64,000 nucleotides of DNA from Candidatus Spechtbacteria bacterium (GCA_016188605.1 JACPHP010000013.1:2846-66845); one strand, 5' to 3'; counted from the first letter of the stretch, positions 4,360 to 61,415 are shown. Notes: a model not told the origin generated them from the letters alone. Translations and numbers: made by a program.

Positions 4360-4387
4360 CGACATTTCTACAAAAGTAAAACCCCGC

Positions 4388-4425
4388 CAGATAAAACTGA
4401 CGGGGTAATTTTTTATAAAAAAGAT
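4388..4425. terminator. Bidirectional hairpin terminator between convergent lipB and E2
   Basis: AAACCCCGCCAGATAAAACTGACGGGGTAATTTTTT has a 9-bp stem with one mismatch and a T-run. Confidence 0.5.
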
Positions 4426-5994: not shown

Positions 5995-6004
5995 TGCAAT
6001 CCTC

Positions 6005-12175: not shown

Positions 12176-13729
12176 TTAATCAACTGGCGCGACTGGATAT
12201 TCGCCAGTAAAGCATCCGTCACAAAAATTTGCGCGCGGCTTGCCAATTGCGCGGTACAAGCCCTCTACACTTAGATAGCCGACATAGTCCGCTCCGATTG
12301 CCGCGCGAATTTCTTCTAGAGAATGATCGTACGCGATTAAACCTTCGCGCTTCGGGATGTCTATGCCCAAATGACAGGAATATTGTATTTGCGGCGACGC
12401 GGAAAGAAAGATAATCATACGTGGATCAAAAGTTCGCAAAATTCGCACAACCGCCTTTGATGCGTTGCTTCTTACAATAGAATCATCTACTATTACGACA
12501 ATGCAACCACGCAGAAGTTCGGGAATCCCGTTGTGCTTGAGAGCTTGCAGAAGCCATCGCTGGTCTTCAATGGGATCCATGAATGTCCTGTTTACCCGCC
12601 CCTTAATAAGCGCGGTCTCAAAAAGATGAGTAAACATCCCACGCGTATATTCAAATTCTTTGGCGTAACCCATGGCAGCCGGCAAACCAGAATCCAGTAC
12701 TGGAACCACAATATCCACATCTATTCCAGTTAAAGGATGTTCGCGCGCTAGCTCTCGACCCATGGCTTGACGTGTTAGATATATGCGCTTGTTATCCAAA
12801 AGTGAGTCGGGGCGAGAAAAATACACACGTTCAAACATGCAGCCGCGCCGTTGCTCTGCCTGGCACCATTGCTCCACGCAAATTCCCTCGCGGGACAGCG
12901 TAACGAGAGTACTTGGAGCAAGTTCCTGAATGCTCGAGCACGAAAAAGCATTCAAAGCGCATGTTTCCGATGCGACAAGAGCGTATTCTTCATTTTCCCC
13001 CACGCAAAGAGGGCGAATAGCAAAGCGATCGTTTACCGCATAAACTATATTGTCATACAGTAAAACCAACGAAAAAGATCCTTTCAATAATTCCAGCGTT
13101 TCAATCAGGGCTTCCTTGAATGTCGGCGCGCTGGATGTTTGAATGAGCACCGCGATAAGCTCGGTGTCAGTGGTTCCCTCCAGCGCGTAACCCCCGCGTC
13201 CTTGAATAATTGCCTTCAACTGTTCAAGACCAATAAGATTTCCATTATGCGCTATAGCTGCCTGTTTATGCTGAAAAATAAACAGAATAGGATGAATATT
13301 ACGCGAAGTGCTCTCCCCTGTTGTTGAGTAGCGCACATGCGCAATGGCGGCATCGCCATGCATATCATCTAGCGGGCTCCGAACATCCGTCAGCTCCATT
13401 TTGTTGAGCGGCTTTTTCATGTTACGCTTGTCGGCGTCAAACTGTTCCGCCAACCACCGCGCAAGATAGCTTGCGATGTCGGCATTTGCCATAGCCAAGT
13501 TATTAACTACTAGATCCACAATTTTTTCTTCCGGGATGCGTTTACGAAACACCCAGTCAATTGTGCCCATCTCCCGATGAGTTACTAAATCAGCATTATA
13601 GGAAACAGTAATGCCAGCGCTTTCTTGACCGCGATGTTGAAGCTGAAATAGGCCGGTGAAGGCAACCTTGGCGATAGTTGTTGCATCTATTTCTTTCATG
13701 CGAGAGACGACCCCGAACACTCCGCACAT
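12176..13729 (-). CDS. purF: Amidophosphoribosyltransferase
   Basis: N-terminal MCGVFGV carries the Ntn-hydrolase catalytic Cys. A PRTase domain follows. C-terminal CDGCFTGEYP are the Fe-S ligand cysteines. Confidence 0.9.
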   Translation of the reverse strand: MCGVFGVVSRMKEIDATTIAKVAFTGLFQLQHRGQESAGITVSYNADLVTHREMGTIDWVFRKRIPEEKIVDLVVNNLAMANADIASYLARWLAEQFDADKRNMKKPLNKMELTDVRSPLDDMHGDAAIAHVRYSTTGESTSRNIHPILFIFQHKQAAIAHNGNLIGLEQLKAIIQGRGGYALEGTTDTELIAVLIQTSSAPTFKEALIETLELLKGSFSLVLLYDNIVYAVNDRFAIRPLCVGENEEYALVASETCALNAFSCSSIQELAPSTLVTLSREGICVEQWCQAEQRRGCMFERVYFSRPDSLLDNKRIYLTRQAMGRELAREHPLTGIDVDIVVPVLDSGLPAAMGYAKEFEYTRGMFTHLFETALIKGRVNRTFMDPIEDQRWLLQALKHNGIPELLRGCIVVIVDDSIVRSNASKAVVRILRTFDPRMIIFLSASPQIQYSCHLGIDIPKREGLIAYDHSLEEIRAAIGADYVGYLSVEGLYRAIGKPRANFCDGCFTGEYPVAPVD

Positions 13730-13885
13730 GAGTGACCTCCTTCTGCGGTTTGTTATTTAGGACTGACGCGTTTAGCGCAAATTATGTTGTTATGAGCATG
13801 TAAAAGTACGTAATGAATTACTATACCCCGTCATTCAGTATATAGTCAATTGTTCATTGTTCGTTGTTCATTGTAATATACCCAT

Positions 13886-16723: not shown

Positions 16724-17335
16724 ATGTTTCCAAAACCAATCCAACAGCTCATAGAGCAATTAAGCGAACTTCCCGGCGTAGGGCCGCGGCAAGCGGCTCG
16801 TTTTGCGTTTTTTCTGATGAAGGACGAACAACGCCTGACATCATTACAGAACTCATTGCGGACACTACAAAACGAGATTGCTTTATGCGCTAACTGTTAT
16901 CTTCCTCACGAAAGAAATGATCAAAATCTTTGCGCAATCTGCTTGCATCCCAAACGCAACGCCTCAACTATTTGTGTGGTAGAAAAAGAAAGTGATGCAA
17001 TGCGCGTAGAAAAAGCGGGGGTGTATAATGGCATTTACTATATTCTGGGCGGAATGTTAACCCCGATGCGACAGGATAATAACATCAAAGAGCGCGTATC
17101 TGGCCTACGCAAAAAATTTGAACAACGTGGAGTAGGCGGCAAGGAGCTCATACTCGCGCTCAATCCTACTCGCGAGGGCATGTTTACATCTCTGTATATT
17201 GAAGAGGTATTAAAAAAATTGCCCGACTACGGCAATCTTCGCGTTACGCGGCTTGCTCGCGGCCTTGCGACTGGATCAGAGCTGGAATATGTGGACGAAG
17301 AAACATTGCGCAATGCGCTAGAGGGAAGGAAGTAA
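16724..17335 (+). CDS. recR: Recombination protein RecR
   Basis: HhH motif LPGVGPRQAARFAF, C4 zinc finger CANCYLPHERNDQNLCAIC, and a Toprim region. Confidence 0.9.
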   Translation: MFPKPIQQLIEQLSELPGVGPRQAARFAFFLMKDEQRLTSLQNSLRTLQNEIALCANCYLPHERNDQNLCAICLHPKRNASTICVVEKESDAMRVEKAGVYNGIYYILGGMLTPMRQDNNIKERVSGLRKKFEQRGVGGKELILALNPTREGMFTSLYIEEVLKKLPDYGNLRVTRLARGLATGSELEYVDEETLRNALEGRK

Positions 17336-17340
17336 GCAAA

Positions 17341-17370
17341 AAAGGAGGGTCAGACCCTCCTTTTTTGCTT
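17341..17370. terminator. Bidirectional terminator built from a GGAGGGTCAGACCCTCC palindrome
   Basis: AAAAAGGAGGGTCAGACCCTCCTTTTTTGC lies between convergent recR and rplU. The same palindrome core occurs in frame inside the helicase gene at 748-794. Confidence 0.7.
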
Positions 17371-19048: not shown

Positions 19049-19396
19049 CTAATATCCATTTACCGCGCGCAGCGATAGAACGCCAAAAAGAAAAATAATT
19101 TCGCAAATAATTCCACTAGACAAAAATGTTAACGATAGTGTTCTTTCGCGATGAAAAAATACGAAAGACAAAATAATGTTTATCGTAAATAATAGCAGCG
19201 CGAGCAGGGGTAAATATGAAAATGATGATGGATCTCCAACTTCTTCAATACCGCTAAGAATCGTATATCTAGTTACGAGTGGCGCATCGCTTTGTACGCG
19301 CGCAAGCAACGAGGTAATTGCATTCAGACCCAAAGCAATACCTAGAGCGGCGAAAACAAATTTATGGGAAATAAATATTCGTATTTGCGTAATCAT
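19049..19396 (-). CDS. Hypothetical small membrane protein
   Basis: 115 aa, three predicted TM segments, 4-nt overlap with rmuC. No recognisable motif. Confidence 0.3.
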   Translation of the reverse strand: MITQIRIFISHKFVFAALGIALGLNAITSLLARVQSDAPLVTRYTILSGIEEVGDPSSFSYLPLLALLLFTINIILSFVFFHRERTLSLTFLSSGIICEIIFLFGVLSLRAVNGY

Positions 19397-20529
19397 TCTT
19401 CTATTACTTGCGCCTCTTCCAGTATGCTTGCCGGGGAACCATTTGCTTCCGGCAAAGTGTCGGCGCTTCTAATTTTATCTACTACGGATGTGAGTTTCTT
19501 TGCGCGTGTTACAGAAACTGTCTGATACTGATTTTGGACAGACTGGATGCGCGCGCCGAGCGTATCTACTTCTTTGTTGTATTTTTCGTACTCATCCTCA
19601 AATTGGCGGAATAAATTAGTGATTTGGCGGATATTTGTTTGGTATGTAAAATTGCGATATGCCTGAAAAATCATGCGTAAAATTGCCGTGAAGCTAAACG
19701 GGCCCGCGAGAATAACTTTTTTAGCCATTGCTTCATTCCATACGTCATATAGCTGATCGTAAATAAAGCTAAACACCATCTCATTTGGCACGAACAAAAT
19801 TACAAAATCAACCGTGTTTTCTTCTGGATTAATGTAATCGCGCGTTGTTACCTCTTTAATTTTTTGTTTTACGTCGCTAGTAAATTGCTTGAGATAGTGC
19901 TGTTTGTCCACCTCTTTTTCCGATTCCTGAAATCGCAACAGCGCGTCCAGTGGAAACTTTACGTCAACGTTTACTTTTGTTTTGTCGGGAAGCAAAATAG
20001 TAAAATCTGGCCGCGTGGTAGTGTTCTCCTGCGCTTGCTCTACTAAATAAGTCTGTCCTTTCACAAAGCCAACAGCGCGGAGAAGATTTTCTGCCACTTC
20101 CTGGCCGTAATGTCCGCGCATTTGGTTATTAGAAAGGATAGAACGCAAGTTGTCCGTCGATTCTCTCAAACTACCCACCAAACTTTTATGCTCCTCTAAA
20201 ACAGTGGATAACTTGCTAAATGCCATTACCTGCTTTTCATTTGTTCCCTGGTTTTGTTGTTGCGCCCGTACCAGTTCGCTATGGATTTTATCAATCGCCT
20301 CTTTTACGGAGTCTTTTTTATTTTCAATAAATTGCTCTTCTTTCTTCATTTTTTCCTCAAGCACATTAAAGGCATTTTGCAACTGTTCCATCATGCGTTC
20401 ACGCTCAAAAGACATATTCCTTGAAGCTTCATTTGCCATCATGCGAACAAGCGGGCCGCGCAACGCGAAAAACAAGGCAATAGATATACCCACAGCAACG
20501 ACCAGAATTATTATGAGTTCAGTAAACAT
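19393..20529 (-). CDS. rmuC: DNA recombination protein RmuC
   Basis: N-terminal TM helix, long coiled coil, and a conserved C-terminal region (RGHYGQ, VDFVILFVPNE). Confidence 0.75.
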   Translation of the reverse strand: MFTELIIILVVAVGISIALFFALRGPLVRMMANEASRNMSFERERMMEQLQNAFNVLEEKMKKEEQFIENKKDSVKEAIDKIHSELVRAQQQNQGTNEKQVMAFSKLSTVLEEHKSLVGSLRESTDNLRSILSNNQMRGHYGQEVAENLLRAVGFVKGQTYLVEQAQENTTTRPDFTILLPDKTKVNVDVKFPLDALLRFQESEKEVDKQHYLKQFTSDVKQKIKEVTTRDYINPEENTVDFVILFVPNEMVFSFIYDQLYDVWNEAMAKKVILAGPFSFTAILRMIFQAYRNFTYQTNIRQITNLFRQFEDEYEKYNKEVDTLGARIQSVQNQYQTVSVTRAKKLTSVVDKIRSADTLPEANGSPASILEEAQVIEE

Positions 20530-21491: not shown

Positions 21492-22997
21492 TTACGCTGC
21501 GCGTTGTAGCGCTCGCACTCGCTCCTGCGCTTCTGCGCGCATTTGGCGGAATTTTGTCATCCATTCTGAAATCAGGGGAGAAAATTCGTAATGGGTGTAT
21601 TGACTCCATGTCTCCTCGGCACGCCGAGCCTGACGCTGGAAATCCATATCCTCGCTGTAGACGATCCGACCTTTCCGTACCAGAGGTACGTAAAGCGGGA
21701 TTCCGTCGATGTTCTCGCTTTCGTCAGCAACGACCATGCAGTCACCGCGACCATAAACTCGAATGATGCCCGGGACTGATTCTTTTCCAGGACTGTTCGA
21801 GAATTTGGTGTTTGGGTGTCCATTGGTCGACGACCGTTTGAACGCCGCAGACACCGTGTCGCGATGGAACGCCCTGTAATAATATCCGCCAGCACCAGGG
21901 AATAGCATCGTGGGCTCCACCCCGGTATGTTCCAGGAAGTATGCAAACACTTCGCGCACCTTGTCCGGTGTTACTTCATCCTCGAAGACGATGGTTCGAC
22001 CCTCAATTCCCTCGGCCTTCATGCGCAGATAGATCTGCACGCATTGCGCTGCAATGTCGCCAGAGTCCACTCGAATTCCGAGAGCTCTTACCTCGATGTG
22101 GTTCTTGAAAACTCGGATGGCATTTTCCAGGCCAACTGTTTCTGCGTCGACTAGATCGCAGAGCAGCGACCCATTGCCATGTGCGGTGACGAACAACTCC
22201 ATAGCCTCGCGCTCCGCTTGATCAAGACCCTTTAGGAAATCCTGCAAGGCACACATGAATTCATGCCCTATCGTTCCAATCGTCTTGAACAGCCAAGGAA
22301 ACATGAATTCAGCGATATCCGCGGATGTAAGAATTCGGCTTCCGCCATTTCCAATATAGATAGCGAGAAGCTTGGCCATGGTCATCGGCTCATTGGGGTC
22401 GGCACGGTATCCAAATTCAGCGCTTCTGTCACCTGCCGCCTCGTGCATCAAACGGCCCTTGGTCGCATGAATCACTGGACCATAATACCGGCACATCTGA
22501 GGCTCCAGGAAAGACACAATGCCACCAACGCCCGTGAACACAAGAGCTGGCACGCCGGCAAGAAAAGTCTGCCCGCCGGGAAAGCCATCGATGTCGATCG
22601 GCAGGTAGATGTTCTGGCCTGACTGCGTGCGAAGAAGGTCATCAAAGATTTCTACTGGAAATAATGGCACCGCCGACTTGGTCGTGTACCAGTCGATGGC
22701 AAGCTCAATATCCCTGCGCTTTAACGGCTTCAGGAACCATTGCCGCAGCATCCACTCATGCCCTGCCATAATCAGGCGGTTGTTAGCACCTGTTTCAGGT
22801 AGGCCTTTGCGTAACGTAAGATGATATGCCGCAGGAGATCGAGAAAGATCGTAGTTGGCGCTCCACATGGTTCTCTTGTATGTGTCAGACGAAATAAATC
22901 CGCCCAATAAGAACCAACGCTGGAGAAATTCGCCAATCATTGCCTTGCGCTTAGCCCCTAACTCGCGCGATAGCGCCTCTGAATAAGAAGTTCTCAT
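21492..22997 (-). CDS. pncB: Nicotinate phosphoribosyltransferase (NAPRTase family)
   Basis: The 501-aa product contains GIRVDSGD (the R-x-DSGD motif of the NAPRTase/NAMPT family). It sits in a nadK-nadD-pncA context. GC content is clearly higher than in neighbouring genes. Confidence 0.7.
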   Translation of the reverse strand: MRTSYSEALSRELGAKRKAMIGEFLQRWFLLGGFISSDTYKRTMWSANYDLSRSPAAYHLTLRKGLPETGANNRLIMAGHEWMLRQWFLKPLKRRDIELAIDWYTTKSAVPLFPVEIFDDLLRTQSGQNIYLPIDIDGFPGGQTFLAGVPALVFTGVGGIVSFLEPQMCRYYGPVIHATKGRLMHEAAGDRSAEFGYRADPNEPMTMAKLLAIYIGNGGSRILTSADIAEFMFPWLFKTIGTIGHEFMCALQDFLKGLDQAEREAMELFVTAHGNGSLLCDLVDAETVGLENAIRVFKNHIEVRALGIRVDSGDIAAQCVQIYLRMKAEGIEGRTIVFEDEVTPDKVREVFAYFLEHTGVEPTMLFPGAGGYYYRAFHRDTVSAAFKRSSTNGHPNTKFSNSPGKESVPGIIRVYGRGDCMVVADESENIDGIPLYVPLVRKGRIVYSEDMDFQRQARRAEETWSQYTHYEFSPLISEWMTKFRQMRAEAQERVRALQRAA

Positions 22998-25234: not shown

Positions 25235-25764
25235 CGTTTTTATTTAGCCCACAATATCTCAAAGCTTGCTTTGAGATTAGCATAAACAGAAGCTAAAATA
25301 TCCTGAGCGAGCTTGCGTTTACGCTGAGCCCGTCAAAGCGAGTCGAAGGATTACCTTCGGATACTCCGCTGCTTGCGGCGAGGTAATTAATTTGTAAATG
25401 TTCCGCTCGCAAAATATATCACAAAGACACTTTTTGCACATTCTTTGTGTATATTTAACACTATATATCCGTGCGTAAAATTTAGCAAGCCCCAAGAGGT
25501 TGATAGCGAGATATCCTAATAGCAATATATTTTTGATAAGATTGGCACTATATTATTGGTACTGATCATGTAGACAAACCTCTAACAGGGCAAGAGCTAT
25601 TACAAACAACGGCACAATCATTGATTTGACACAAACGCCTCTATGGGTAACAATATCATTAGAGGCGTTTGTGCCTCAATTCAAAAACAACTAGCGCGGA
25701 ACTGCCATCTCTTTTGATAGGTCGGAAATCTACATAGCGAACGGGTATCCTTGGCCGGTTATCG

Positions 25765-26571
25765 GTGAAGGCTAGCGGTTCGATATGTAGGAGATTGGCG
25801 TCTGCGCGTAATTCTTACGCGGTGGAAATCTCTTTTGCGGCTGAGACCATAGGGCATCTCGGCGGACTCCCCATCACCAATAGTTTGTTAATGTCCTGGA
25901 TAACCATGGCTATTCTTTTTGTTGTTGGGCTTATGGTCGGATATCGTCCAACCCTTATTCCTGGACGCTTGCAGAATGCCTTTGAAATGATAATAGATAC
26001 TATGCTGAACTTTTTTGCAGAGATCATGGGATCCCGTAAAGAAGCGGAAAAGGTCTTTCCGATTGTTTTTACGTTTTTTATTTTCATTCTTCTATCTAAT
26101 TGGCTTGGTATTCTGCCTGGCATTGGCGCGATTGGATTTGAAGAAACAGCAGAAGGCGCGGAACATGGTACAAAGTTCATTCCCCTCTTGCGTTCTTCAT
26201 ATAGCGACCTTAATATGACCTTGGCGCTTGCGATTTGCTCGCTTGTGATAACTCATATTATAGGCATCAGCGCCATTGGTATCGGAAAGCATATCGGTAA
26301 ATTTATTTCTTTCAAGAGCCCCATGGCTTTTTTCGTGGGAATATTGGAAACCATAGCGGAGGTCGCGAAGATCCTTTCATTCTCGTTTCGATTGTTTGGT
26401 AATGTGTTCGCGGGTGAGGTTTTGCTTACTGTGATGCTGTTCTTAATGCCCTATATAGCGCCCGCACCATTTTTGGGAATGGAACTGTTTGTAGGATTTA
26501 TTCAAGCGCTAGTATTCTCTATGTTAACTTTGGTATTCATTAAAGTCGCTATGATGCAAACAGAGCATTAG
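25765..26571 (+). CDS. atpB: F0F1 ATP synthase subunit a
   Basis: Polytopic protein with a C-terminal conserved Arg region (LSFSFRLFGNVFAGEVLL). The true start may lie downstream of the listed ATG. Confidence 0.8.
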   Translation: MKASGSICRRLASARNSYAVEISFAAETIGHLGGLPITNSLLMSWITMAILFVVGLMVGYRPTLIPGRLQNAFEMIIDTMLNFFAEIMGSRKEAEKVFPIVFTFFIFILLSNWLGILPGIGAIGFEETAEGAEHGTKFIPLLRSSYSDLNMTLALAICSLVITHIIGISAIGIGKHIGKFISFKSPMAFFVGILETIAEVAKILSFSFRLFGNVFAGEVLLTVMLFLMPYIAPAPFLGMELFVGFIQALVFSMLTLVFIKVAMMQTEH

Positions 26572-26580
26572 TTTAAATTA

Positions 26581-26700
26581 AAAATTAAAAGTCAAAAATT
26601 TAAAATTATAGTATATACGTCGCGCGGAGCGCGCGACACCATAATTTTTCACTTTTCATTTTTAACTTTTAATTATCAGGATAATTTATTAATTAATTTC
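26581..26700. repeat. Composite palindrome: AT-rich arms around GC core GTCGCGCGGAGCGCGCGAC
   Basis: Lies between atpB and atpE. Confidence 0.7.
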
Positions 26701-26732
26701 ATGGCTTTCAATCATAATAAATAAATTGATAG

Positions 26733-26972
<240 letters not shown>

Positions 26973-26975
26973 TCG

Positions 26976-27056
26976 CTGCTAACCGCAAACCGACGACCGC
27001 ATACTGCCACTCGGCGACGGTTGACGGTTGGCGGTAGTCGGTCGACAGCATTAGCT
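26976..27056. repeat. ACCGAC/TACCGC-word palindrome (GC-type family)
   Basis: GCTAACCGCAAACCGACGACCGCATACTGCC...GGTTGGCGGTAGTCGGTCGACAGC, between atpE and atpF. Confidence 0.75.
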
Positions 27057-27566
27057 ATGTCCGAACTTCTCACAAGTCTTCACATCGATTGGCACATTCT
27101 GCTCGCGCAGATAGTGAATTTTTTGATTCTTCTTTTTTTGCTCGCCAAGTTTGCTTATAAACCAATAATTAAGCTTTTAAACGAACGTCGAAAGATGGTT
27201 GAAGATTCCGTTGAGCGCGCGCAGGCAATTGAACAAAAATTCCAAGAATTTAAGGAATATCGCGCTAAACAGCTTCAAGAAGTACGCAAAGAAGCCCAGC
27301 AGATACTAGTACAAGCGCATGAGTCAGCGGAAAAAGAAAAAGAAGATATTCTTGCCAAAACACGTAAACAGCTGGATGTACTTTTTACGCGAGCAGAAAA
27401 GCAAATTGAACAGCAAAAGGTTGAAATGGTGGCGAACGCGGAAAAAGAAATCGTAACCCTGCTTATTCCTTCGCTGACGCGAGTATTGAAAGATTCGGTA
27501 GACGAGCAGACGCAAAAGACTATTTTGGATCAAGCCGCAAGGCGCATTAAAACGATGTACTCGTAA
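27057..27566 (+). CDS. atpF: F0F1 ATP synthase subunit b
   Basis: Single N-terminal TM helix followed by a long charged helix. Start set at the ATG after the upstream palindrome. Confidence 0.8.
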   Translation: MSELLTSLHIDWHILLAQIVNFLILLFLLAKFAYKPIIKLLNERRKMVEDSVERAQAIEQKFQEFKEYRAKQLQEVRKEAQQILVQAHESAEKEKEDILAKTRKQLDVLFTRAEKQIEQQKVEMVANAEKEIVTLLIPSLTRVLKDSVDEQTQKTILDQAARRIKTMYS

Positions 27567-27690
27567 CAAAATCTCAAAATGCAAATCTCAAATCGCAAAA
27601 CTACAACTCAAATCGCAAAACTACGAACTGTGGCGATTTTAGATTTGCGATTTCGATTTGAGATTTAACATTTTAGATTTGAGATTAAAA
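27561..27690. repeat. AT-rich word palindrome, CAAATCTCAAAT family (atpF/atpH spacer)
   Basis: Read directly. Confidence 0.85.
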
Positions 27691-27691
27691 T

Positions 27692-28069
27692 ATGCAATAT
27701 TCTCCTCGTTTTTACGCCAAAGCATTAGTTGCTTCGCTAAAAGAAGTATCGCCAAAAGAGCAGGGCGCGATTATTAAGCGTTTTGCAAAAATGCTGGAAC
27801 AACAAAAAGCGCTTGGGCTAGCCAAGCAGATTTACGCGGCAGTAGAAACAGAGCTTGCAGAAGAGAAAAAAAAGAATACCGCAAGAATTGTCACCGTCAC
27901 TTCTCTATCCGAATCAGAAAAAAAGAAAATGAAAGAGCAATTTCCCGCGAAAGAATACGAATTTACTACAAATTCCGAATTGATTGGCGGGTTGGTGGTG
28001 CAGCATGGGACGAGGCTATATCAGGCAACTTTGCGGAAAATACTGGAGGGCTTAACCTCAAGTATTTAA
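27692..28069 (+). CDS. atpH: F0F1 ATP synthase subunit delta (short form)
   Basis: C-terminal ELIGGLVVQHGTRLYQATLRKILEGL resembles delta/OSCP. Only 125 aa. Position in the operon supports the call. Confidence 0.65.
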   Translation: MQYSPRFYAKALVASLKEVSPKEQGAIIKRFAKMLEQQKALGLAKQIYAAVETELAEEKKKNTARIVTVTSLSESEKKKMKEQFPAKEYEFTTNSELIGGLVVQHGTRLYQATLRKILEGLTSSI

Positions 28070-28080
28070 AAATATAATTA

Positions 28081-28210
28081 TAATACTAAATGTCAAAATC
28101 CAAATTACAAATGTCAAATCAATGTCAAAGTTCAAAAATCAAAAATTTTGACATTAAGTCATTTGGATTTCATTTGTAATTTGAAATTTGGACTTTGAAA
28201 TTTATTCGCT
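28081..28210. repeat. AT-rich word palindrome, TGTCAAA/TTTGACA subfamily; direct copy A (5' of atpA)
   Basis: About 97% identical over about 120 bp to 29771-29900. My alignment gives 3 substitutions and 1 indel. Confidence 0.9.
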
Positions 28211-28213
28211 ACT

Positions 28214-29770
28214 ATGGATTCCTTAATCCAAAAACTGCAAAAAGAATTAGAGGGATACAAATCTCCGACCATGGCTTCGGAGTCTGTTGGTCGTGTAGAA
28301 AAAATGTACGATGGAATTGCGATTTGCTCCGGCATTGACGAAGCGCTTGCTTCTGAAATGATCGAGATTTACCCGCGCACAGCCGGAAAAAATTCAGAAG
28401 ACGTAAAAGGCGCGCCGCTTTTTGGCCTCGCGCTTAATATTGAAGAAAGCCAGATCGGAGTCGTGGTGCTTGGTGATTACGCGCAAATCCAAGAGGGCGA
28501 TGTTGTAAAAACTACAAAACGCGTACTGGAAGTGCCTGTCGGCGAGGAGTTACTTGGCAATGTTGTAAATGCTCTGGGACAATCGCTTGAAAATAAAGCT
28601 TTAAATACTAAAACCCGCTACCCTGTTGAGCGTGTGGCGTCTGGCGTTATTAGCCGCGAGGCAGTTAACGAGCCAATACAAACAGGTATTAAAGCGATTG
28701 ATTCCATGATTCCTATCGGCCGCGGCCAGCGTGAGCTTATCATCGGTGACCGTCAAATTGGGAAAACCGCTCTCATCATAGACACCATCTTAAGCCAGCT
28801 CAATGAACCAGAAGACAAGCGTCCGTATTGTATTTATGTTGCTATCGGCCAAAAGGCATCCAAAGTTGCAAGGGTCGTGCAGACTCTGCGCGAGCGTGGA
28901 GCTATGGAATACACTATAGTAGTAGCTTCATTCTCGTCTGATCCCGCGGCTCTTTGGTATATCGCGCCTTACGCCGGATGCGCAATCGGCGAATATTTTA
29001 TGGACAAAGGCAAGGATGCGATTGTTTTTTACGACGATCTCACCAAGCACGCGTGGGCTTATCGCCAAATGTCACTTTTACTTCGCCGCCCGCCAGGTCG
29101 CGAGGCATATCCTGGCGATGTTTTCTATTTGCATTCTCGCCTACTTGAGCGTTCCGCAAAGCTTAACAAAGAACTTGGCGGCGGTTCGCTCACCGGTATT
29201 CCCGTAATTGAAACCCAATCGGGTGATGTGTCCGGCTACATTCCAACTAATGTTATTTCCATTACCGACGGCCAGATTTATCTTGAGCCAAACCTTTTCT
29301 ACAAAGGCATCCGCCCCGCGCTTAATGTCGGTCTTTCCGTGTCGCGCGTGGGTGCGGCGGCGCAAACAAAAGCAATGAAGAAAGTTGCGGGCAAACTTCG
29401 CCTGGAGCTTGCGCAGTATCGCGAACTTGCCGCTTTCGCGCAGTTTGGCTCTGATCTTGATGAGGCAACACAGAAACGATTGCGCCGCGGTGAAAGATTG
29501 AGTGAGCTGCTAAAGCAAGGCCAGTACGTCCCAATGGCTTGGTATAAGCAGACGCTTTCTATTTATGCCGGAGTAAATGGCTTACTAGACCAGGTGCCCG
29601 TGAGCGATGTTCAACGCTGGGAGAGCGAGTTTCATACATATTGCGATGCATACGCGGCTGATATGCTTGAAAAGATGAAAGAAAAGAGAGAGATTACGCC
29701 CGAGATTGATGAGCTGATTAAGGCGGCAATTATGGAGTTTAATGGACAGTTTGTGACTGGAAAACAATAG
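28214..29770 (+). CDS. atpA: F0F1 ATP synthase subunit alpha
   Basis: [10 protein letters not shown] (P-loop) and further conserved alpha regions. Length is 518 aa. Confidence 0.95.
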
Positions 29771-29900
29771 CTTACTAAATGTCAAAATCCAAATTACAAA
29801 TGTCAAATCAATGTCAAAGTTCAAAATTCAAAAATTTTGATATTAAGTCATTTGGATTTCATTTGTAATTTGACATTTGGACTTTGAAATTTTATTAGCT
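29771..29900. repeat. AT-rich word palindrome, direct copy B (3' of atpA)
   Basis: See 28081-28210. Confidence 0.9.
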
Positions 29901-29902
29901 TT

Positions 29903-30880
29903 ATGCCTATCTCCACTCGTGAAGTAAAAAATCGCCAGCGTTCCATTTTTAATATTCGCCAGGTTACAAAAGCCATGGAGATGGTTTCAGCATCCAAAAT
30001 GCGTAAAGCCCAAATGATTGCCTTACGCACTCGTCCGTATGCTTACAAGGCGCTGGAAATGCTCTCGCATTTAACCGCCGAAGAGATTGACCAAGAGATT
30101 GGAAACACTGGAAATATATTTATCGCGCCAAAGAATGCTTCTCCCGCAGAGCTTCTTCGCAATCCCAAGGGCAAGGTGCTTATAGTTGCCATAACGTCAG
30201 ACAAAGGACTTATCGGCGGCCTTAATGCCAACGTAATGAAAGAAACTTTGGCAATCGTTCGCCAGTATCAAAAACAAGATACGCTAGTGGAGCTAATTCT
30301 TGTTGGTGAAAAAAGCAAAGCATCGTTTCAGCGGCTGGGCGTGCCAATAGAAAAAGTTTTTACTGGCGCGGGAGACTACGCTACTACCGAGCAGACTATG
30401 CCTATCGCAGAACTTATTCGTAATAGATACGAGGCAGGCTGGGTTTCTCGCGTCGTAGTTGTGTATTCCGAATTTATTTCTACTTTGAAGCAGCGCGTCA
30501 CGCATCGTTTGTATCTTCCAGTAACGGCAAAAATTTTAAACGACGTGATTAATGACATTATTCCTCAAACCGGAAAGTTTTCCGAACTGCGAAACGAGGA
30601 GTATGCGACAGAAAAAACAATGCCAGATTTTACATACGAACCAAATAAACAAGAGCTTATTTCCACGCTAGTCCCCTTCTTTCTTGATTTGTACTTGTAT
30701 CATATTATTTTAGAATCTAATGCTTCAGAGCATTCAGCGCGCATGGTGGCAATGAAGAGCGCGTCGGATAACGCCAAAAACCTCCTTGATACACTGACAC
30801 TTACATATAATAAAGCGCGCCAAGCTGCTATTACGCGGGAAATTAGCGAAATTACGGCAGGCGTGGAGGCGATGAAATGA
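29903..30880 (+). CDS. atpG: F0F1 ATP synthase subunit gamma
   Basis: N-terminal REVKNRQRSIFNIRQVTKAMEMVSASKMRKAQ and C-terminal ITREISEITAGVEAMK are gamma-subunit helices. Confidence 0.9.
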   Translation: MPISTREVKNRQRSIFNIRQVTKAMEMVSASKMRKAQMIALRTRPYAYKALEMLSHLTAEEIDQEIGNTGNIFIAPKNASPAELLRNPKGKVLIVAITSDKGLIGGLNANVMKETLAIVRQYQKQDTLVELILVGEKSKASFQRLGVPIEKVFTGAGDYATTEQTMPIAELIRNRYEAGWVSRVVVVYSEFISTLKQRVTHRLYLPVTAKILNDVINDIIPQTGKFSELRNEEYATEKTMPDFTYEPNKQELISTLVPFFLDLYLYHIILESNASEHSARMVAMKSASDNAKNLLDTLTLTYNKARQAAITREISEITAGVEAMK

Positions 30881-32397
<1,517 letters not shown>

Positions 32398-32399
32398 CT

Positions 32400-32520
32400 A
32401 TCTCAAAACGCAAATCTTAAATCGCAAAACTAAAACTCAAATCTGAAAACTACGGCGAAGATTTTAGATTTGCGATTCAGATTTGAGATTTGCCATTTGA
32501 GATTTTAGCTTTATTTATGC
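32400..32520. repeat. AT-rich word palindrome; direct copy A (5' of atpC)
   Basis: About 96% identical over about 108 bp to 32755-32880 (4 substitutions). Confidence 0.9.
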
Positions 32521-32753
32521 ATCTAACCATTCTCAACCTAAACGAAACCCTCTACGATGGCGAAGCAAGCGGCATCACTGCCCCTGGTACTGTTGGTGAG
32601 TTTACCGTACTTCCCCATCATATAGACCTTTTAACGTCTCTTAAAAAAGGCGTAATTACCGTGCATACAAAAGGCGTGGAAAAAACCTATATTGAAGCCC
32701 CGCGCGGCGGGATTTTTGAGCTGGCGGGTGAGAAGGCGACTATACTGTTGTAA
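32517..32753 (+). CDS. atpC: F0F1 ATP synthase subunit epsilon (N-terminal beta-sandwich only)
   Basis: LNLNETLYDGEASGITAPGTVGEFTVLPHHIDLLTSL is epsilon-like. Start taken at the ATG after the upstream palindrome. The C-terminal helical hairpin is absent. Confidence 0.7.
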   Translation: MHLTILNLNETLYDGEASGITAPGTVGEFTVLPHHIDLLTSLKKGVITVHTKGVEKTYIEAPRGGIFELAGEKATILL

Positions 32754-32754
32754 T

Positions 32755-32880
32755 CTCAAAATGTAAATCTTAAATCGCAAAACTAAAACTCAAATCTGAA
32801 AACTACGGCGAAGATTTTATATTTGCGATTCAGATTTGAGTTTTGCCATTTGAGATTTTAGATAAAATAGTAATTTAACT
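32755..32880. repeat. AT-rich word palindrome; direct copy B (3' of atpC)
   Basis: See 32400-32520. Confidence 0.9.
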
Positions 32881-32886
32881 AATTCT

Positions 32887-33339
32887 ATGGAAAAACAAGA
32901 AACCAAAATAATCCCCGTATCTCATGAATTATTGAGCAGCCACTCCTGCCCCGCCACAGTCGTAATGTGCATGGATTTTCGCTTTGTTAAGGCAACGCAG
33001 GAATTTGTGCAAAAAAACCTTGCAACTCCAAATTTTGATTTGTTGATTGCACCCGGTTGCATAAAGGGCTTGCTTCAAGAAGGCACGCTAAAAAATTATT
33101 TGTTGGAAAATATAGCGCTATCAATCAAGCTGCATCTTACGCATGAGTTAGTCCTAGTCTGCCACTCCACTTGCGGCGCATACGGCATCCCGGATAGGGC
33201 GCAAGAACACGAACAGCAAGAAAAAGATCTCGCCGAGGCCGCAAAAATCCTAACAGAATCATTCCCATCGCTTTCTATTCATGCTTGTATTGCAAACGGT
33301 GATGCGGAGAAAGAAGAAATAGTATACGAAAATATATAA
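32887..33339 (+). CDS. Hypothetical protein with beta-carbonic-anhydrase-like zinc-ligand motifs
   Basis: CMDFR (C-x-D-x-R) and HSTCGA (H-x-x-C-G) are spaced as in beta-CA, but the protein is only 150 aa and lacks other beta-CA blocks. Confidence 0.3.
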   Translation: MEKQETKIIPVSHELLSSHSCPATVVMCMDFRFVKATQEFVQKNLATPNFDLLIAPGCIKGLLQEGTLKNYLLENIALSIKLHLTHELVLVCHSTCGAYGIPDRAQEHEQQEKDLAEAAKILTESFPSLSIHACIANGDAEKEEIVYENI

Positions 33340-33344
33340 CAACT

Positions 33345-33373
33345 TAAACAAAAAATCCCGCTTAGGCGGGATT
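33345..33373. terminator. Bidirectional hairpin terminator
   Basis: AAAAAATCCCGCTTAGGCGGGATTTTTTG is a perfect stem flanked by A- and T-runs, between convergent genes. Confidence 0.7.
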
Positions 33374-34003
33374 TTTTGTTTCTATTTTTACTTCTTTATT
33401 CAACAACGGCAGAATCACCGGCCTCGCCGCTTCCAGCGCATATCTGCGGTGAGTGATTTTTGCTTCTTCTTCCAGCGGAAGCTCGCCTAATGTTTTGCCC
33501 AGCTCCGGCATGTAGAAAATTGTGCGAAAGGGATAGCCGGAAATGCGCATCGGGACTGGCTCTGTGGTGATGTAACCGTTAAGCCGGCCTTCAAAAGTTG
33601 GGGTTTCTTTAATTTCTTTTAGCGCAAAGGCAATCTCAACCACAAAATGCGCCGTGCGCTTTTCCTGTGGCACACCATCTAACTTTTTGAGTGTTAGCGC
33701 AATCAATTCTTCATCCGTTGCTTCATGGCCGGGCCAGCGGCGTGAATATATTCCTGGCTCGCCGTTAAGATAGTCAATTTCAATTCCCCCATCATCAGCC
33801 AACGTAGGCAAACCGCTAAGCGCGAAATAAAACTGCGCTTTTTTTATTGCATTTTCCTTGAACGTCTTTCCATCCTCCTCACATTTTTTATCACCAAGAC
33901 CAACATCATTCAAAGATAAAAGCTCGCATCCCCAGTCGCGCAAAAGGATGCGATATTCTTCCAGTTTTCCATTGTTGGTTGTGGCGATTAAGAGTTTCAT
34001 CAC
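33362..34003 (-). CDS. rdgB: Non-canonical purine NTP pyrophosphatase (RdgB/Ham1 ITPase)
   Basis: LLIATTNNGKLEE and DDGGIEIDYLNGEPGIYSRR are Ham1 family motifs. Confidence 0.8.
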   Translation of the reverse strand: MMKLLIATTNNGKLEEYRILLRDWGCELLSLNDVGLGDKKCEEDGKTFKENAIKKAQFYFALSGLPTLADDGGIEIDYLNGEPGIYSRRWPGHEATDEELIALTLKKLDGVPQEKRTAHFVVEIAFALKEIKETPTFEGRLNGYITTEPVPMRISGYPFRTIFYMPELGKTLGELPLEEEAKITHRRYALEAARPVILPLLNKEVKIETKNPA

Positions 34004-36372: not shown

Positions 36373-36396
36373 CGTAGCGTAGCGCAACTAAACAAA

Positions 36397-36428
36397 ACCC
36401 CGCCAGCACACTTGGCGGGGTAATTTAT
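36397..36428. terminator. Bidirectional hairpin terminator between the convergent GreA paralogs
   Basis: AAAACCCCGCCAGCACACTTGGCGGGGTAATTT. Confidence 0.65.
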
Positions 36429-36442
36429 TTTAGTTTAAGAGT

Positions 36443-36988: not shown

Positions 36989-38941
36989 TCAACGTGTGGA
37001 CAAAGGATGCGCCTCGTTATATTTTTGCAAAATATCTCGCGTAACATACACTGCTTCCGCGCTTTCTCCTCCTCTCTCCATCATAACCAAAATAACAAGC
37101 CGAGGATTATCATATGGCGCGAACCCCACAAACCACGCATGGTTGTCACCGGCAGTTGCTTGCGCCGTTCCAGTTTTGCCCGCCATATTAAACGGCAAAA
37201 CTCTCAAAGATTGGCTGGATCCTGAAGTTACAGCCATACGCATGCCTTCTTGCACCACTTTATAAATATCTGACGAAAAAGGAAGGGTTCGCCGCGCCCA
37301 GTTCAAAACAGTATCTTGAATACTACTAACAACATGGGGAATAAAATATGTGCCGCTATTTGCAATTGAAGAAATACTCGCCGCTACTTGAAGCGGCGTC
37401 GCTATCACATCCCCCTGCCCTATGCTTGCGTGATAAGTATTCCCAATAAACCAATCCTCGCCCTTTGATTTTTTCTTCCATTGTGGCGATGGTACAAAGC
37501 CATTCCCCTCGCCGGGTAAATCAATGCCTGTTTTAAATCCCCAATTGAATATTTGTAAATATTTAGCTATACGATCAATGCCTAGACCTTGTTGGCCCAT
37601 ATAACCACCGCCGATAATATAAAAATACACATCCGACGATACTGCGAGGGCTTTACGCATATCTACGGGTCCATGATTCTTCCAATCTAAAAATGTATAG
37701 CTTACGGAAGGATCGTATATGCTTGGGACTGTAATAGAGCCGCGAGTCTCAATAATCTTGTTAGGATCTATCACATGCTCTTGCAGTGCCGCCGCGGCAA
37801 GAAGTGGCTTAATAACCGAACCGCTCGGATACGATCCTGCCGTAGCACGATTAATAAATGGATTTGATGAATCATTAATAAGCGCGTTATATTCATCGTA
37901 GTTAATGCCTTTTACGAAGCTGTTGGGGTCAAAGCTCGGCAGGCTAACAAGCGCGCGCACAGCGCCGTCTTTAGGATCAATAGCAACGACGCTTCCTGCT
38001 TTCAAGTCCCTTTCTTTAAGCGCGGCTGATAAAGTATCGTACGCGATTTTCTGCAGATCTATATCAATCGTCGTATTAACTGTCTGCCCTTTTTGGGGTT
38101 GAGAAATTACCCGTTCGCCTAAAGTTTGCCCTTTGGCATTGATAAAATTTGCCGCCATGCCGGGTACTCCACGCAATTCTTTTTCATAAGTCAATTCAAG
38201 ACCATATTTTCCAATCCGATCATCCGCGATATAATTTACGTCATTGTACTTAAAAAGCTCGTTGGGAGTAATGGGAGCAGTATAGCCCAAGACATGCGCG
38301 GTATATAATCCGTACGGATAATAGCGCATAGGATGCTCGCGAAATGCAATGCCGACAATATCACCGATTTGCCCTTGAATCACGCTCACTTCCTCAATAG
38401 AAAGATTGCGAGCAAGAATAGCGCGGGCAATATTTTTTTGTTTCACGTCATCAATTTTTGTTTGAATTATTTTAGCTCCGTCTTCATTTCGGCCAAGCGC
38501 TTGCGCCAACACGCTAATCTGCTCTTGTGTTGCCTTCATGTCTTTGGGTCGTAATTCCACATCAAACCCTGAAATACTTGTAGCCAGAACCCTTCCCTTG
38601 TAATCGAAAATATCCCCGCGGGGCGCTTGTAGGGTAAACGTCCTCTCCGCGTTTTGCGCCGCCATCGTGGCATATTTTCCACCCTGGCCAAAATTTAAAT
38701 ATACAACATACAAAAATAAAAATAAAAAAATAGCAAATGTAACCAATTGAATCGCGATCGGAATAAAATTAGGCGTCGAAATTTCCAATTTTTTTTCTTG
38801 TTCGTAAGATGAATCTTTATCCAGAACAAATGATGCGTCGGGGAATATTTCCTCGGGCTCAATTGATTCTTTGCTTTGACTAATAGTGCCAAGGGAATCA
38901 AGACTATTTTTTCGGTGGAAGAACATTATATTTAATCTCAA
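36989..38941 (-). CDS. mrdA: Penicillin-binding protein 2 (peptidoglycan D,D-transpeptidase)
   Basis: N-terminal TM helix, SVIKP (SxxK), SSD-like motif and KTGTAQ (KTG). Lies adjacent to mreB. Confidence 0.8.
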   Translation of the reverse strand: MRLNIMFFHRKNSLDSLGTISQSKESIEPEEIFPDASFVLDKDSSYEQEKKLEISTPNFIPIAIQLVTFAIFLFLFLYVVYLNFGQGGKYATMAAQNAERTFTLQAPRGDIFDYKGRVLATSISGFDVELRPKDMKATQEQISVLAQALGRNEDGAKIIQTKIDDVKQKNIARAILARNLSIEEVSVIQGQIGDIVGIAFREHPMRYYPYGLYTAHVLGYTAPITPNELFKYNDVNYIADDRIGKYGLELTYEKELRGVPGMAANFINAKGQTLGERVISQPQKGQTVNTTIDIDLQKIAYDTLSAALKERDLKAGSVVAIDPKDGAVRALVSLPSFDPNSFVKGINYDEYNALINDSSNPFINRATAGSYPSGSVIKPLLAAAALQEHVIDPNKIIETRGSITVPSIYDPSVSYTFLDWKNHGPVDMRKALAVSSDVYFYIIGGGYMGQQGLGIDRIAKYLQIFNWGFKTGIDLPGEGNGFVPSPQWKKKSKGEDWFIGNTYHASIGQGDVIATPLQVAASISSIANSGTYFIPHVVSSIQDTVLNWARRTLPFSSDIYKVVQEGMRMAVTSGSSQSLRVLPFNMAGKTGTAQATAGDNHAWFVGFAPYDNPRLVILVMMERGGESAEAVYVTRDILQKYNEAHPLSTR

Positions 38942-39100
38942 ATCTTAAATCACAAATTTCAAATCTAAATCTTAAATGTAAAATCTTCGACGTCAGATTA
39001 AAAGTTTTTCCGCCAGAGGCGCCTGCCCGCCTCTGGCGGGGATCAGCCTTTGGCTGAGAAATTTGAGTTTCAGTTTTGCGATTTAAGATTTGATATTTTA
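38931..39100. repeat. Composite element: AT-word arms plus GC core (RC of CCGCCAGAGGCGGGCAGGCGCCTCTGGCGG and TCAGCCAAAGGCTGA); inverted near-identical copy of 48480-48600
   Basis: The central 100 bp match the reverse complement of 48480-48600 almost base for base. Lies between mrdA and mreB. Confidence 0.9.
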
Positions 39101-39102
39101 GA

Positions 39103-40155
39103 TTATCTTGGTGCCTTCTGAAAATCTGTTGTCACCAAAACATCGTGCAGCTTATCAATATTTTCAAGCACAACACCGGTACCGCGAGCGACTGCAGTTA
39201 AAGGGTCTTCCGCGATTACAACGGGCATCATAGTTTTTTCTGATACAAGTTCATCTAAACGCCTTAGCAACGACCCTCCGCCTGCAAGGATAATACCGCG
39301 CTTCATAATATCCGCGAGCAATTCAGGTGGAGTTTCTTCTACCGTTGATTTAATCGCGCCAACAATCGCGTCAATAGACGACGCGAGAGCTCTGCGTACA
39401 TGATCGTCATTAATAACAATTTCTTTTGGCAGACCTGTTACAAGGTCGCGCCCGCGCATCGTGGCCTCCAACGGCTCGCTAAGCGGCAAAGCCGAGCCAA
39501 TCTCAATCTTAATATCTTCAGCGGTGCGTTCGCCCAAAAGCAAATTAAACTCTTCGCGAGCGTAATGAATAATATCCTCATTAAGTTTATCTCCCGCGAC
39601 GCGCAAACTCCGCGCTCTTACAATGCCGCCAAGCGAGATGACCGCGACTTCCGTAGTTCCTCCGCCAATATCCACGATAATATTACCTGCTGCCTCCTGC
39701 ACGGGCAGGCGCGCGCCAATTGCCGCGGCCATGGGTTCCTCCATCAAAAAAACTTCTCTCGCGCCAGCGTTGCTTGCCGCATCCTCCACTGCGCGTTTTT
39801 CTACTTCGGTTACGCCATAAGGAATTGCGATAACTACGCGCGGACGAGGAAAAATAGAGAAAAAATCGCTATGCACTTTTTCAATAAAATACCGAAGCAT
39901 CTGCTCGGTAATTTCAAAATCGGAAACAACACCATCCACAAGCGGACGGCAAGCAACAATATGCGCGGGAGTTTTACCCACCATTCTGCGCGCATCCTCG
40001 CCAATTGCAAGAATCCTGCCAGTTTTTTTGTTAATCGCGACAACAGAGGGCTCATTGATTACAATCCCCTTACCCCGTACATAAACGAGGGTGTTGGCGG
40101 TTCCCAAATCTATGCCGATGTCTTTTGAAAATTTACCCCAAAGTTTGTCTAACAT
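39103..40155 (-). CDS. mreB: Rod-shape determining protein MreB
   Basis: IGIDLGTANTLVYVRGKGIV and actin-fold ATPase motifs. Length is 350 aa. Confidence 0.9.
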   Translation of the reverse strand: MLDKLWGKFSKDIGIDLGTANTLVYVRGKGIVINEPSVVAINKKTGRILAIGEDARRMVGKTPAHIVACRPLVDGVVSDFEITEQMLRYFIEKVHSDFFSIFPRPRVVIAIPYGVTEVEKRAVEDAASNAGAREVFLMEEPMAAAIGARLPVQEAAGNIIVDIGGGTTEVAVISLGGIVRARSLRVAGDKLNEDIIHYAREEFNLLLGERTAEDIKIEIGSALPLSEPLEATMRGRDLVTGLPKEIVINDDHVRRALASSIDAIVGAIKSTVEETPPELLADIMKRGIILAGGGSLLRRLDELVSEKTMMPVVIAEDPLTAVARGTGVVLENIDKLHDVLVTTDFQKAPR

Positions 40156-48449: not shown

Positions 48450-48640
48450 TTATCTTATCTTAAAACGCAAATCTAAAATGGCAAAACTAAATCTCAAAAT
48501 TCTCAGCCAAAGGCTGATCCCCGCCAGAGGCGGGCAGGCGCCTCTGGCGGAAAAACTTTTAATCTGACGTCGAAGATTTTACATTTAAGATTTAGATTTG
48601 AGATTTGCCATTTGAGATTTAAGATAATAACTGATTCTAT
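48450..48640. repeat. Composite element (AT-word arms, TCAGCCAAAGGCTGA, core hairpin CCGCCAGAGGCG-GGCAG-GCGCCTCTGGCGG); 3' of the second mreB
   Basis: Read directly. Core is identical to 49716-49760 and to the reverse complement of 39010-39050. Confidence 0.9.
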
Positions 48641-49660: not shown

Positions 49661-49840
49661 AAATGTAAATCTCAAATGGCAAAACTAAAATCTGAATCGC
49701 AAATCTTCAGCCTGAGGCTGATCCCCGCCAGAGGCGGGCAGGCGCCTCTGGCGGAAAAATACCGTAGTTCGTAGTTTTTAGATTTGAGTTGTAGTTTTAC
49801 GTTTTGCGATTTGAGCTTTAAGATATAATATCAAAATAGT
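49661..49840. repeat. Composite element with the same GC core; 5' of the second mreB
   Basis: The core TCAGCCTGAGGCTGATCCCCGCCAGAGGCGGGCAGGCGCCTCTGGCGGAAAAA is shared with 48480-48600. Confidence 0.9.
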
Positions 49841-52722: not shown

Positions 52723-52763
52723 GTTTCAATGCTACTTCATTGCTTCAAAAAACAACCCGCATA

Positions 52764-52793
52764 GTTTGCGGGTTGTTTTTAATAATATAGTTA
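52764..52793. terminator. Bidirectional hairpin terminator
   Basis: AAAAACAACCCGCATAGTTTGCGGGTTGTTTTT lies between a convergent gene pair. Confidence 0.7.
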
Positions 52794-61340: not shown

Positions 61341-61415
61341 GGTCATTCTCTTACGATAAACTCAGCAAAAAAGATTATAAATTGAATTCGTTTACCAAGC
61401 TAAGAGCCCCAACCC

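Follow-up and report, generated by a model that had tools for sequence, protein, structure and literature searches.

A near-identical pair of heptamer-periodic palindromes flanks atpA in a Candidatus Spechtbacteria bacterium and belongs to a pervasive class of intergenic elements

The DNA considered here, henceforth the window, is a stretch of 64,000 nt from Candidatus Spechtbacteria bacterium, an uncultured member of the Patescibacteria or candidate phyla radiation (CPR), and all coordinates count from its start. On its plus strand lies a complete F-type ATP synthase operon, whose AtpA is 100% identical to a protein from a metagenome-assembled genome labelled 'Candidatus Spechtbacteria bacterium'. 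Within this operon, atpA is bracketed by two copies, here called c1 and c2, of a 120-nt imperfect palindrome with a heptamer periodicity. The genes and elements concerned are as follows:

25765-26571, plus strand: atpB
26745-26972, plus strand: atpE
27021-27566, plus strand: atpF
27692-28069, plus strand: atpH (delta/OSCP), the upstream neighbour of c1
28070-28213: atpH-atpA spacer, which holds c1
28084-28203, plus strand: c1, a 120-nt heptamer-periodic imperfect palindrome starting 14 nt past the atpH stop
28204-28213, plus strand: linker from c1 to atpA, ATTCGCTACT, without a Shine-Dalgarno motif
28214-29770, plus strand: atpA (F1 alpha subunit, 518 aa), between c1 and c2
29771-29902: atpA-atpG spacer, which holds c2
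29773-29892, plus strand: c2, a direct repeat of c1 starting 2 nt past the atpA stop
29893-29902, plus strand: linker from c2 to atpG, TATTAGCTTT, likewise without a Shine-Dalgarno motif
29903-30880, plus strand: atpG (gamma), the downstream neighbour of c2
31006-32397, plus strand: atpD
32517-32753, plus strand: atpC
33346-33381, strand not assigned: bidirectional intrinsic terminator at the end of the atp operon (GC stem and T-runs)

Alignment of the two copies bears out the central claim of a preliminary description of this locus, namely that near-identical palindromic elements in direct orientation bracket atpA: c1 and c2 agree at 117 of 120 positions (97.5%; BLAST E-value 1.4e-55), with a start-to-start distance of 1689 nt. 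That description had counted three substitutions and one indel between the copies. The substitutions (28138A/29827T, 28152C/29841T and 28185A/29874C) are as reported and leave perfect blocks of 54 (the longest), 32, 18 and 13 nt; the one-base indel, however, sits beyond the 3' end of the element, inside the linker to the next ATG, and the second interval, formerly placed at 29777-29898, was shifted by about 4 nt from its correct start at 29773. Identity sets in sharply at a common TAC outside the palindrome and is only ~70% in the 3' linkers. In both copies the next start codon, that of atpA for c1 and of atpG for c2, lies exactly 10 nt past the 3' end of the element. Part of the c2 linker, TTAGCTTTAT, is found again 5' of atpC, and this motif displays no enrichment across the window.

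Both copies start with TACTAAATG and share a simple architecture. The 5' arm is a run of the form (NNNCAAA)n, namely TGTCAAA, ATCCAAA, TTACAAA, TGTCAAA and so on, and its complement, (TTTGNNN)n, makes up the 3' arm, which ends in TTTGTAA, TTTGAAA, TTTGGAC and TTTGAAA, such that the two pair as a ~45-bp hairpin of defined length. Tandem Repeats Finder recovers a period of 7 or 14 in both arms, and the base autocorrelation of the copies peaks at lags 7 and 14. The GC content of the c1 and c2 spacers is 22-23% versus roughly 44% for the genome. As RNA, these spacers fold at -31.2 and -28.5 kcal/mol respectively (z = -4.9 and -3.8 against shuffles), and as DNA both copies fold at about -22 to -23 kcal/mol on either strand.

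Repeats of 120 nt are close to read or k-mer length, and Logan unitigs break within both of them, so that the assembly graph branches there; this might raise the suspicion that the pair is an artefact of assembly or binning, with a repeat collapsed or duplicated by the assembler. Nevertheless, unitigs from independent runs link each private base to its own unique flank, 28185A to the 5' flank of atpA and 29874C to that of atpG. One of them (L006, from 6 samples) is an exact match to 28155-29802, and four others from as many runs (L131-L134) begin at 29866 and agree with the window base for base over as much as 2.5 kb, the ends falling where 31-mers become common to both copies. As copy-specific bases are thus carried at both junctions, we conclude that both copies are present in the sequenced population. 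Relatives moreover conserve the canonical order atpH-atpA-atpG, and we consider an artefact extremely improbable. A unitig over the 5' arm of c1 was sought by way of an AtpH look-up and none was found. As these unitigs show, short-read assemblies break at gene boundaries because of such repeats.

The two copies are part of a much larger population. Among the 49 spacers of at least 40 nt in the window, 26 have a period-7 score above the 99th percentile of coding controls, versus 2 of 400 controls. The heptamers come in several flavours (NNNCAAA, NNACCGC, ACGAATA, GAATACA and CATTG type), each with a complementary second arm, and the CAAA-type elements have lengths of about 110-124 nt. Nearly all spacers of the atp operon carry a heptamer palindrome, and nearly every spacer of the rpsM-rpsK-rpsD-rpoA-rplQ-rplM-rpsI operon is filled by one. 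The members that bear most directly on c1 and c2 are:

56936-57050, strand not assigned: c3, the third member of the TGTCAAA sub-family, 5' of rpsM, 81-83% identical to c1 and c2 in either orientation
27569-27689, plus strand: palindrome of the CTCAAA/CGCAAA flavour in the atpF-atpH spacer
30893-30987, plus strand: palindrome of the (NNACCGC)n flavour in the atpG-atpD spacer, folding at -56 kcal/mol
32400-32508, plus strand: first copy of the atpC pair (CTCAAA/CGCAAA flavour), in the atpD-atpC spacer
32753-32861, plus strand: second copy of the atpC pair, directly past the atpC stop
38935-39092, strand not assigned: first copy of the mreB pair, 158 nt, 11 nt downstream of the mreB-1 stop
48468-48625, strand not assigned: second copy of the mreB pair, 158 nt, 12 nt downstream of the mreB-2 stop

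A 21-base degenerate motif of the arm matches only c1, c2 and c3 in the window. The preliminary description had proposed a pairwise alignment against the other family copies, expecting 70-80% identity if c1 and c2 were no closer than any two members; the values obtained are 97.5% between c1 and c2 versus the 81-83% of either to c3. Its further statement that all other members are far more diverged therefore stands for the strict TGTCAAA sub-family and fails for the wider class, in which comparison of the window with itself brings out two further pairs of high identity. The atpC pair is 96.3% identical over 109 nt, direct, and brackets atpC in the manner in which c1 and c2 bracket atpA; one of the Logan unitigs (L131) terminates at 32428, within its first copy. 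The mreB pair is 93.7% identical over 158 nt, inverted, with 9.5 kb between the copies, and its element, a heptamer palindrome, encloses a second, GC-rich one. Because these pairs too are near-identical, the phenomenon is one of the spacer elements generally and not of atpA: c1 and c2 are the freshest pair of a pervasive class of intergenic palindromes and not something special to atpA. The two most similar pairs among 25 elements, c1/c2 and the atpC pair, are immediate neighbours.

The mreB paralogues themselves (39103-40155 and 48637-49650) have in common only a 52-nt patch at 81% identity, which implies that the spacer elements behind them are far younger than the gene duplication, or that they have been homogenised.

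Relatives place these observations in perspective. The nearest AtpA is 77% identical, and those examined span 66-77%. A comparison of synteny, also proposed at the outset, finds the order atpH-atpA-atpG unchanged in all of them (four atp loci). Their orthologous spacers, in contrast, are occupied by other elements or by none (atpH-atpA: 29 nt in L003 and 121 nt in L001; atpA-atpG: 77 nt and 3 nt, respectively); hence, the turnover of the elements is fast relative to the divergence of the proteins. Sharing of spacer elements within the operon recurs in two of the four loci, with sequences unrelated to those of c1 and c2. In L001 (AtpA 73%) a 104-nt element 5' of atpB is found again 5' of atpA at 84.6% identity, and in L005 (AtpA 66%) TAGGTNN hairpins occupy three neighbouring atp spacers, those between atpE and atpF and between atpH and atpA being 76% identical over 76 nt. 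A further contig, L130, has a near-identical direct repeat of ~85 nt with copies 1625 nt apart. The shared element of L001 (3505-3608 and 5897-6000) is of a non-heptamer type, CCCGTACGAAAT...ATTTCGTACGGG, with a closing 12-bp stem, and each copy runs right up to a start codon, the one to that of atpB and the other to that of atpA.

Elements of the same design extend well beyond this genome. An exact 24-mer scan of JGI metagenomes yielded 4 loci, every one from other genomes, and the 21-base degenerate arm motif occurs at no fewer than 120 loci (>=120) of many phyla in the genome collection, with zero matches among 2.9 million viral contigs. Among the matches listed, about a quarter have CAAA and TTTG heptamer runs nearby, indicating the hairpin type, and in the remaining ones, such as those in Bacteroidota, the tandem array is confined to one strand. 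Full-length elements of the hairpin type and of similar length, from other genomes, are 77-85% identical to c1 over 87-121 nt:

L117: 82.6% to c1 over 115 nt
L012: 85% to c1 over 87 nt
L100: 82.7% to c1 over 104 nt
L099 (1238-1353): 80% to c1 over 115 nt, an AT-rich copy in a contig of 53% GC
L042: 77% to c1 over 121 nt

The first four lie between co-directional genes, and the neighbours of the last are oppositely oriented. An identity of ~80% is thus what a common heptamer 'grammar' alone yields, and against this background the 97.5% of c1 and c2 is a true outlier. We further observed CAAA-heptamer palindromes ~80% identical to c1 between genes of contigs of 43-53% GC that were binned to non-CPR phyla (L099 and L027 as Bdellovibrionales, L100 as Gammaproteobacteria); these are either mis-binned CPR contigs or signs of an element design that crosses phyla.

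Set beside the 81-83% seen within the genome and the 77-85% seen elsewhere, the identity of c1 and c2 supports the kind of explanation first offered for it, a recent duplication or gene conversion. We propose, with a probability of roughly 0.6, an explanation in which one of these two neighbouring atp spacers was recently copied from the other in a process driven by homology or microhomology rather than by a transposase; recent copying as such is the only reasonable reading. One copy would have been written into the adjacent spacer, or would have overwritten a hairpin already existing there, either by ectopic gene conversion or by template switching during replication between nearby hairpins with common heptamer cores, and the three point changes would have been gathered after the copying. 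Several lines of evidence lead us to infer recombination or template switching as the mechanism. A Pfam search of about 57 open reading frames (ORFs) of the window revealed no transposase, RAYT, TnpA or integrase; no consistent target-site duplication is seen; copying between neighbours recurs in the window and in L001 and L005, with unrelated sequences; and the heptamer cores common to all elements could seed misalignment.

An account that deserves to be weighed against this is that c1 and c2 are a non-autonomous element comparable to the miniature inverted-repeat transposable elements (MITEs) or REPINs, mobilised in trans by a transposase encoded elsewhere, and that one copy has recently moved. 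The defined length of the CAAA-type elements and the sharp edges of identity are what such an element would display, and so are the counterparts of like design and length in several other genomes, the AT-rich copy in the 53% GC contig L099 among them, and the wide separation and inverted orientation of the mreB pair. Conversely, besides the lack of any candidate enzyme among the window ORFs, no consistent target-site duplication is seen in the flanks, where c1 is bounded as ATAA/TAC...TTT/ATTC and c2 as AGCT/TAC...TTT/TATT, nor is one seen at c3 or at the elements of other genomes, and the TA dinucleotide is inseparable from the palindrome. The copy number in 64 kb amounts to two near-identical copies, which are adjacent, and one at 82%. 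The many coexisting heptamer flavours would each need their own recognition, and the arm motif is absent from the viral contigs. On balance, we find mobilisation in trans an unlikely explanation, albeit the strongest of the competing ones.

In their behaviour these elements recall REP, BIME, REPIN and ERIC-type palindromes, and in their periodicity the heptamer repeats of other bacteria. REPINs are repetitive extragenic palindromes of proteobacteria mobilised by RAYT, a Y1 transposase, and REP hairpins stabilise upstream mRNA. Like the REP, BIME and REPIN sequences, the elements described here are multicopy, short extragenic palindromes, often situated between cistrons, whose hairpins would be co-transcribed and which are copied and turned over within the genome. 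A REP is defined as a GC-rich imperfect palindrome of 20-40 nt, one end of which carries a conserved tetranucleotide, GTAG or CGTC (PMC3733652; a further overview of the REP/REPIN families is given in PMC3116915). In contrast, c1 and c2 are 120 nt long, lie in AT-rich spacers, consist of tandem heptamers and have no GTAG or CGTC head, and no cognate RAYT is found among the window ORFs.

A second point of comparison is offered by the ERIC/IRU and Correia/RUP families of MITEs, imperfect palindromes of ~100-150 bp in transcribed intergenic DNA of enterobacteria, Neisseria and pneumococci, which fold as long RNA hairpins able to alter the stability of the flanking mRNA. Our elements resemble them in a length of ~120 nt, in being imperfect palindromes and in their intercistronic or untranslated-region position; the terminal inverted repeats of a MITE are trivially present in c1 and c2, the whole element being an imperfect palindrome. 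Unlike our elements, those families have no heptamer periodicity, there is no sequence relation between them, and in place of one consensus we find many flavours.

The heptamer unit itself recalls the cyanobacterial STRR sequences and the TAACTGA repeats, the latter reported from Beggiatoaceae, cyanobacteria and Bacteroidetes, with a single inverted case among 170 sets (PMC4679880). They have in common with our elements a 7-nt unit, an intergenic position often just 5' of starts and the coexistence of several related heptamers in one genome, and for them, too, a part in translation or rearrangement is suspected (PMC4679880). They differ in being direct arrays on one strand, whereas the arrays of c1 and c2 are each paired with a complement. 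Such one-strand arrays are present in the Spechtbacteria genome too, as is indicated by a non-palindromic direct run of GGTCATT-type heptamers at 61290-61350, between BipA/TypA (61416-63299) and tRNA-Tyr/Thr genes; another, a TTGTTCA run with no complementary arm, lies at ~13840-13880, just 5' of a DnaB gene. Quasipalindrome template switching would keep arms complementary without strand bias. Template switching or ectopic conversion would hence explain why identity is confined to the palindrome, why the complementary arms are free of bias and why neighbours are homogenised, although its operation in Spechtbacteria is our inference.

Two other systems were considered and rejected. TIGR arrays consist of tandem dual-spacer units of ~36 nt beside a Nop-domain Tas gene (PMC12045711); here the period is 7 and not 36, the hairpins are single and dispersed within core operons, and no Nop or Tas protein is encoded among the window ORFs. 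The attC sites of integrons are ruled out by the absence of core sites at the ends of c1 and c2, by the conserved atp operon flanks and by the lack of an integrase in the window. Core sites of this kind, RYYYAAC...GTTRRRY, bound an imperfect palindrome in attC, within a cassette array that adjoins an integrase gene. In the searchable literature we found no descriptions of such palindromes in CPR or Patescibacteria.

The near-identity might alternatively be kept by selection, with the two copies acting together either as identical sites for a protein or an RNase that set atpA expression or through long-range pairing of the 5' arm of c1 with the 3' arm of c2, which would bracket the atpA mRNA for processing. 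The 5' arm of c1 and the 3' arm of c2 are 84% complementary over 25 nt, and both copies stop exactly 10 nt short of a start codon lacking a Shine-Dalgarno motif, as might be expected of such cooperation. Yet equally near-identical copies surround atpC, which encodes epsilon (one per complex), and follow the mreB genes, so that there is no stoichiometric logic tied to alpha (three per complex); the orthologous spacers of relatives carry different elements or none, the local hairpins would form first in transcription, and there is no strand asymmetry. We therefore regard maintenance by selection as improbable.

What the elements do in their operons is a separate question from how they are copied. 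A terminator scan did not detect c1 or c2, whose stems are AU-rich, and a role as intrinsic terminators is rejected, there being no short GC-rich stem-loop followed by a T-run. Promoter-like matches in the window number 22 against 15.2 +/- 3.3 in shuffles, a small excess, with none on the plus strand within c1 or c2. Only 3 tRNAs pass the Rfam gathering threshold in the window, c1 and c2 matching no family, and a permissive Rfam scan of 25500-33500 gave sub-threshold generic hairpins only, none of them on c1 or c2. Within the window, only co-directional and divergent spacers hold heptamer elements. The convergent spacers that were read have canonical, often bidirectional, terminators of the GC-stem and T-run type and no heptamer hairpin; in addition to the atp operon terminator at 33346-33381, these include:

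4381-4420: convergent-spacer terminator
17336-17370: convergent-spacer terminator
36395-36430: convergent-spacer terminator
52750-52785: convergent-spacer terminator

A Shine-Dalgarno-like motif precedes only 10 of 55 genes in the window and none of the twenty-odd genes that start just 3' of a heptamer hairpin, the distance from the hairpin base to the downstream ATG being 3-28 nt. The elements would be transcribed together with the genes and form AU-rich intercistronic hairpins immediately 5' of starts without a Shine-Dalgarno motif, where they may act as RNA punctuation in processing, stability or the insulation of translation rather than as terminators. Their intra-operon position, their ends near such starts and their absence from convergent spacers are suggestive of this role; the data accord just as well with a neutral or selfish origin. 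Two classes of start regions can be told apart: one, seen at a minority of genes, contains a strong GAAGGAGG Shine-Dalgarno motif, and the other, that of the hairpin-adjacent genes, has none. Examples are:

4429-5994: gene with a Shine-Dalgarno motif
6005-8209: gene with a Shine-Dalgarno motif
12176-13729: gene with a Shine-Dalgarno motif
21492-22997: gene with a Shine-Dalgarno motif
27692, 28214, 29903 and 31006: hairpin-adjacent starts with none

A bolder version of this proposal, which we put forward very tentatively and hold to be rather doubtful, would see the palindromes as a self-homogenising operon 'punctuation' of Patescibacteria that spreads by transposase-free copy-and-paste between neighbours and replaces the Shine-Dalgarno motif, with c1/c2 and the atpC pair as snapshots of the process. 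If true, the processing or translation of each cistron would be governed by its own hairpin.

Several observations weigh against copying between neighbours and against the RNA role that we attach to the elements. The adjacency effect over all 25 elements is weak (permutation p about 0.05 and 0.08). The mreB pair is near-identical despite being inverted and 9.5 kb apart, and so the copying is not strictly local or direct. Element copies were counted in the 64-kb window, and near-identical copies elsewhere in the genome would favour transposition. With the nearest AtpA at 77%, the event is undatable and duplication is not separable from conversion. Finally, the 23 elements that can be oriented fold equally well in sense and antisense (10 versus 13 elements), and their G.U counts (53 versus 60) are without asymmetry; given that no sense/antisense signature is present, these counts leave the RNA role unsupported.

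The preliminary description had also pointed out that direct repeats flanking a single essential gene would permit its excision or amplification by recombination. The minimal processing segment for RecA-mediated recombination in E. coli is roughly 20-40 bp, and since the longest perfect block between c1 and c2, 54 nt, exceeds it, atpA could physically be deleted or tandemly duplicated through the repeats, speculative though this is. Every recovered unitig, from at least 4-6 runs, has intact atpA and atpG junctions, although 31-mer unitigs may miss rare variants. The same argument holds equally for atpC, and deletion or duplication of atpA, possible in principle, would be a side effect of the repeats and not a demonstrated property of the locus.

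Taken alone, the pair is a small fact, and its value is that of a time-stamp for the element class. It indicates that the turnover of heptamer palindromes, among them the ones in the atp and ribosomal alpha operons, is still under way and favours neighbours, a bias more in keeping with local recombination or template switching than with dispersive transposition. The evidence is that of a pervasive, undescribed and currently active class of elements; if they act on mRNA, they would add a major layer, so far unstudied, to the expression of operons in organisms not yet culturable.

Some further features of the window deserve mention. Three AT-rich heptamer hairpins, two of which are those of the mreB pair, enclose in their loops a perfect GC-rich palindrome of 30 nt, CCGCCAGAGGCG-N6-CGCCTCTGGCGG, whose own 6-nt loop occurs in both orientations (CCTGCC and GGCAGG), as in a flip-flop:

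39010-39039: nested GC-rich palindrome
48521-48550: nested GC-rich palindrome
49725-49754: nested GC-rich palindrome
4288-4317: degenerate copy in an lplA-like ORF

It looks like a smaller second element that inserts into hairpin loops, and a similar GC-rich palindrome is present in the relative L001 at 5390-5420. The first ~2.8 kb of the window (1-2850) hold short ORFs only, with no Pfam or Rfam match, and include near-perfect palindromes at 732-804 and 1747-1789 (21-nt arms, 100% complementary). The DnaB helicase (904 aa, 13886-16600) is split by an intein with a LAGLIDADG homing-endonuclease domain. A 2-oxoacid dehydrogenase E1 (fused alpha/beta, 734 aa) and E2, together with a lipoate-protein ligase, are encoded at 4429-8209 and 3610-4359, which along with the complete F-type ATPase make for a fairly rich energy metabolism for Patescibacteria. 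Lastly, the window encodes RmuC (19393-20529) and RecR (16724-17335), both with heptamer hairpins alongside; the RmuC family is implicated in limiting recombination at short inverted repeats, and the two proteins may be relevant to the stability of a palindrome-rich genome.

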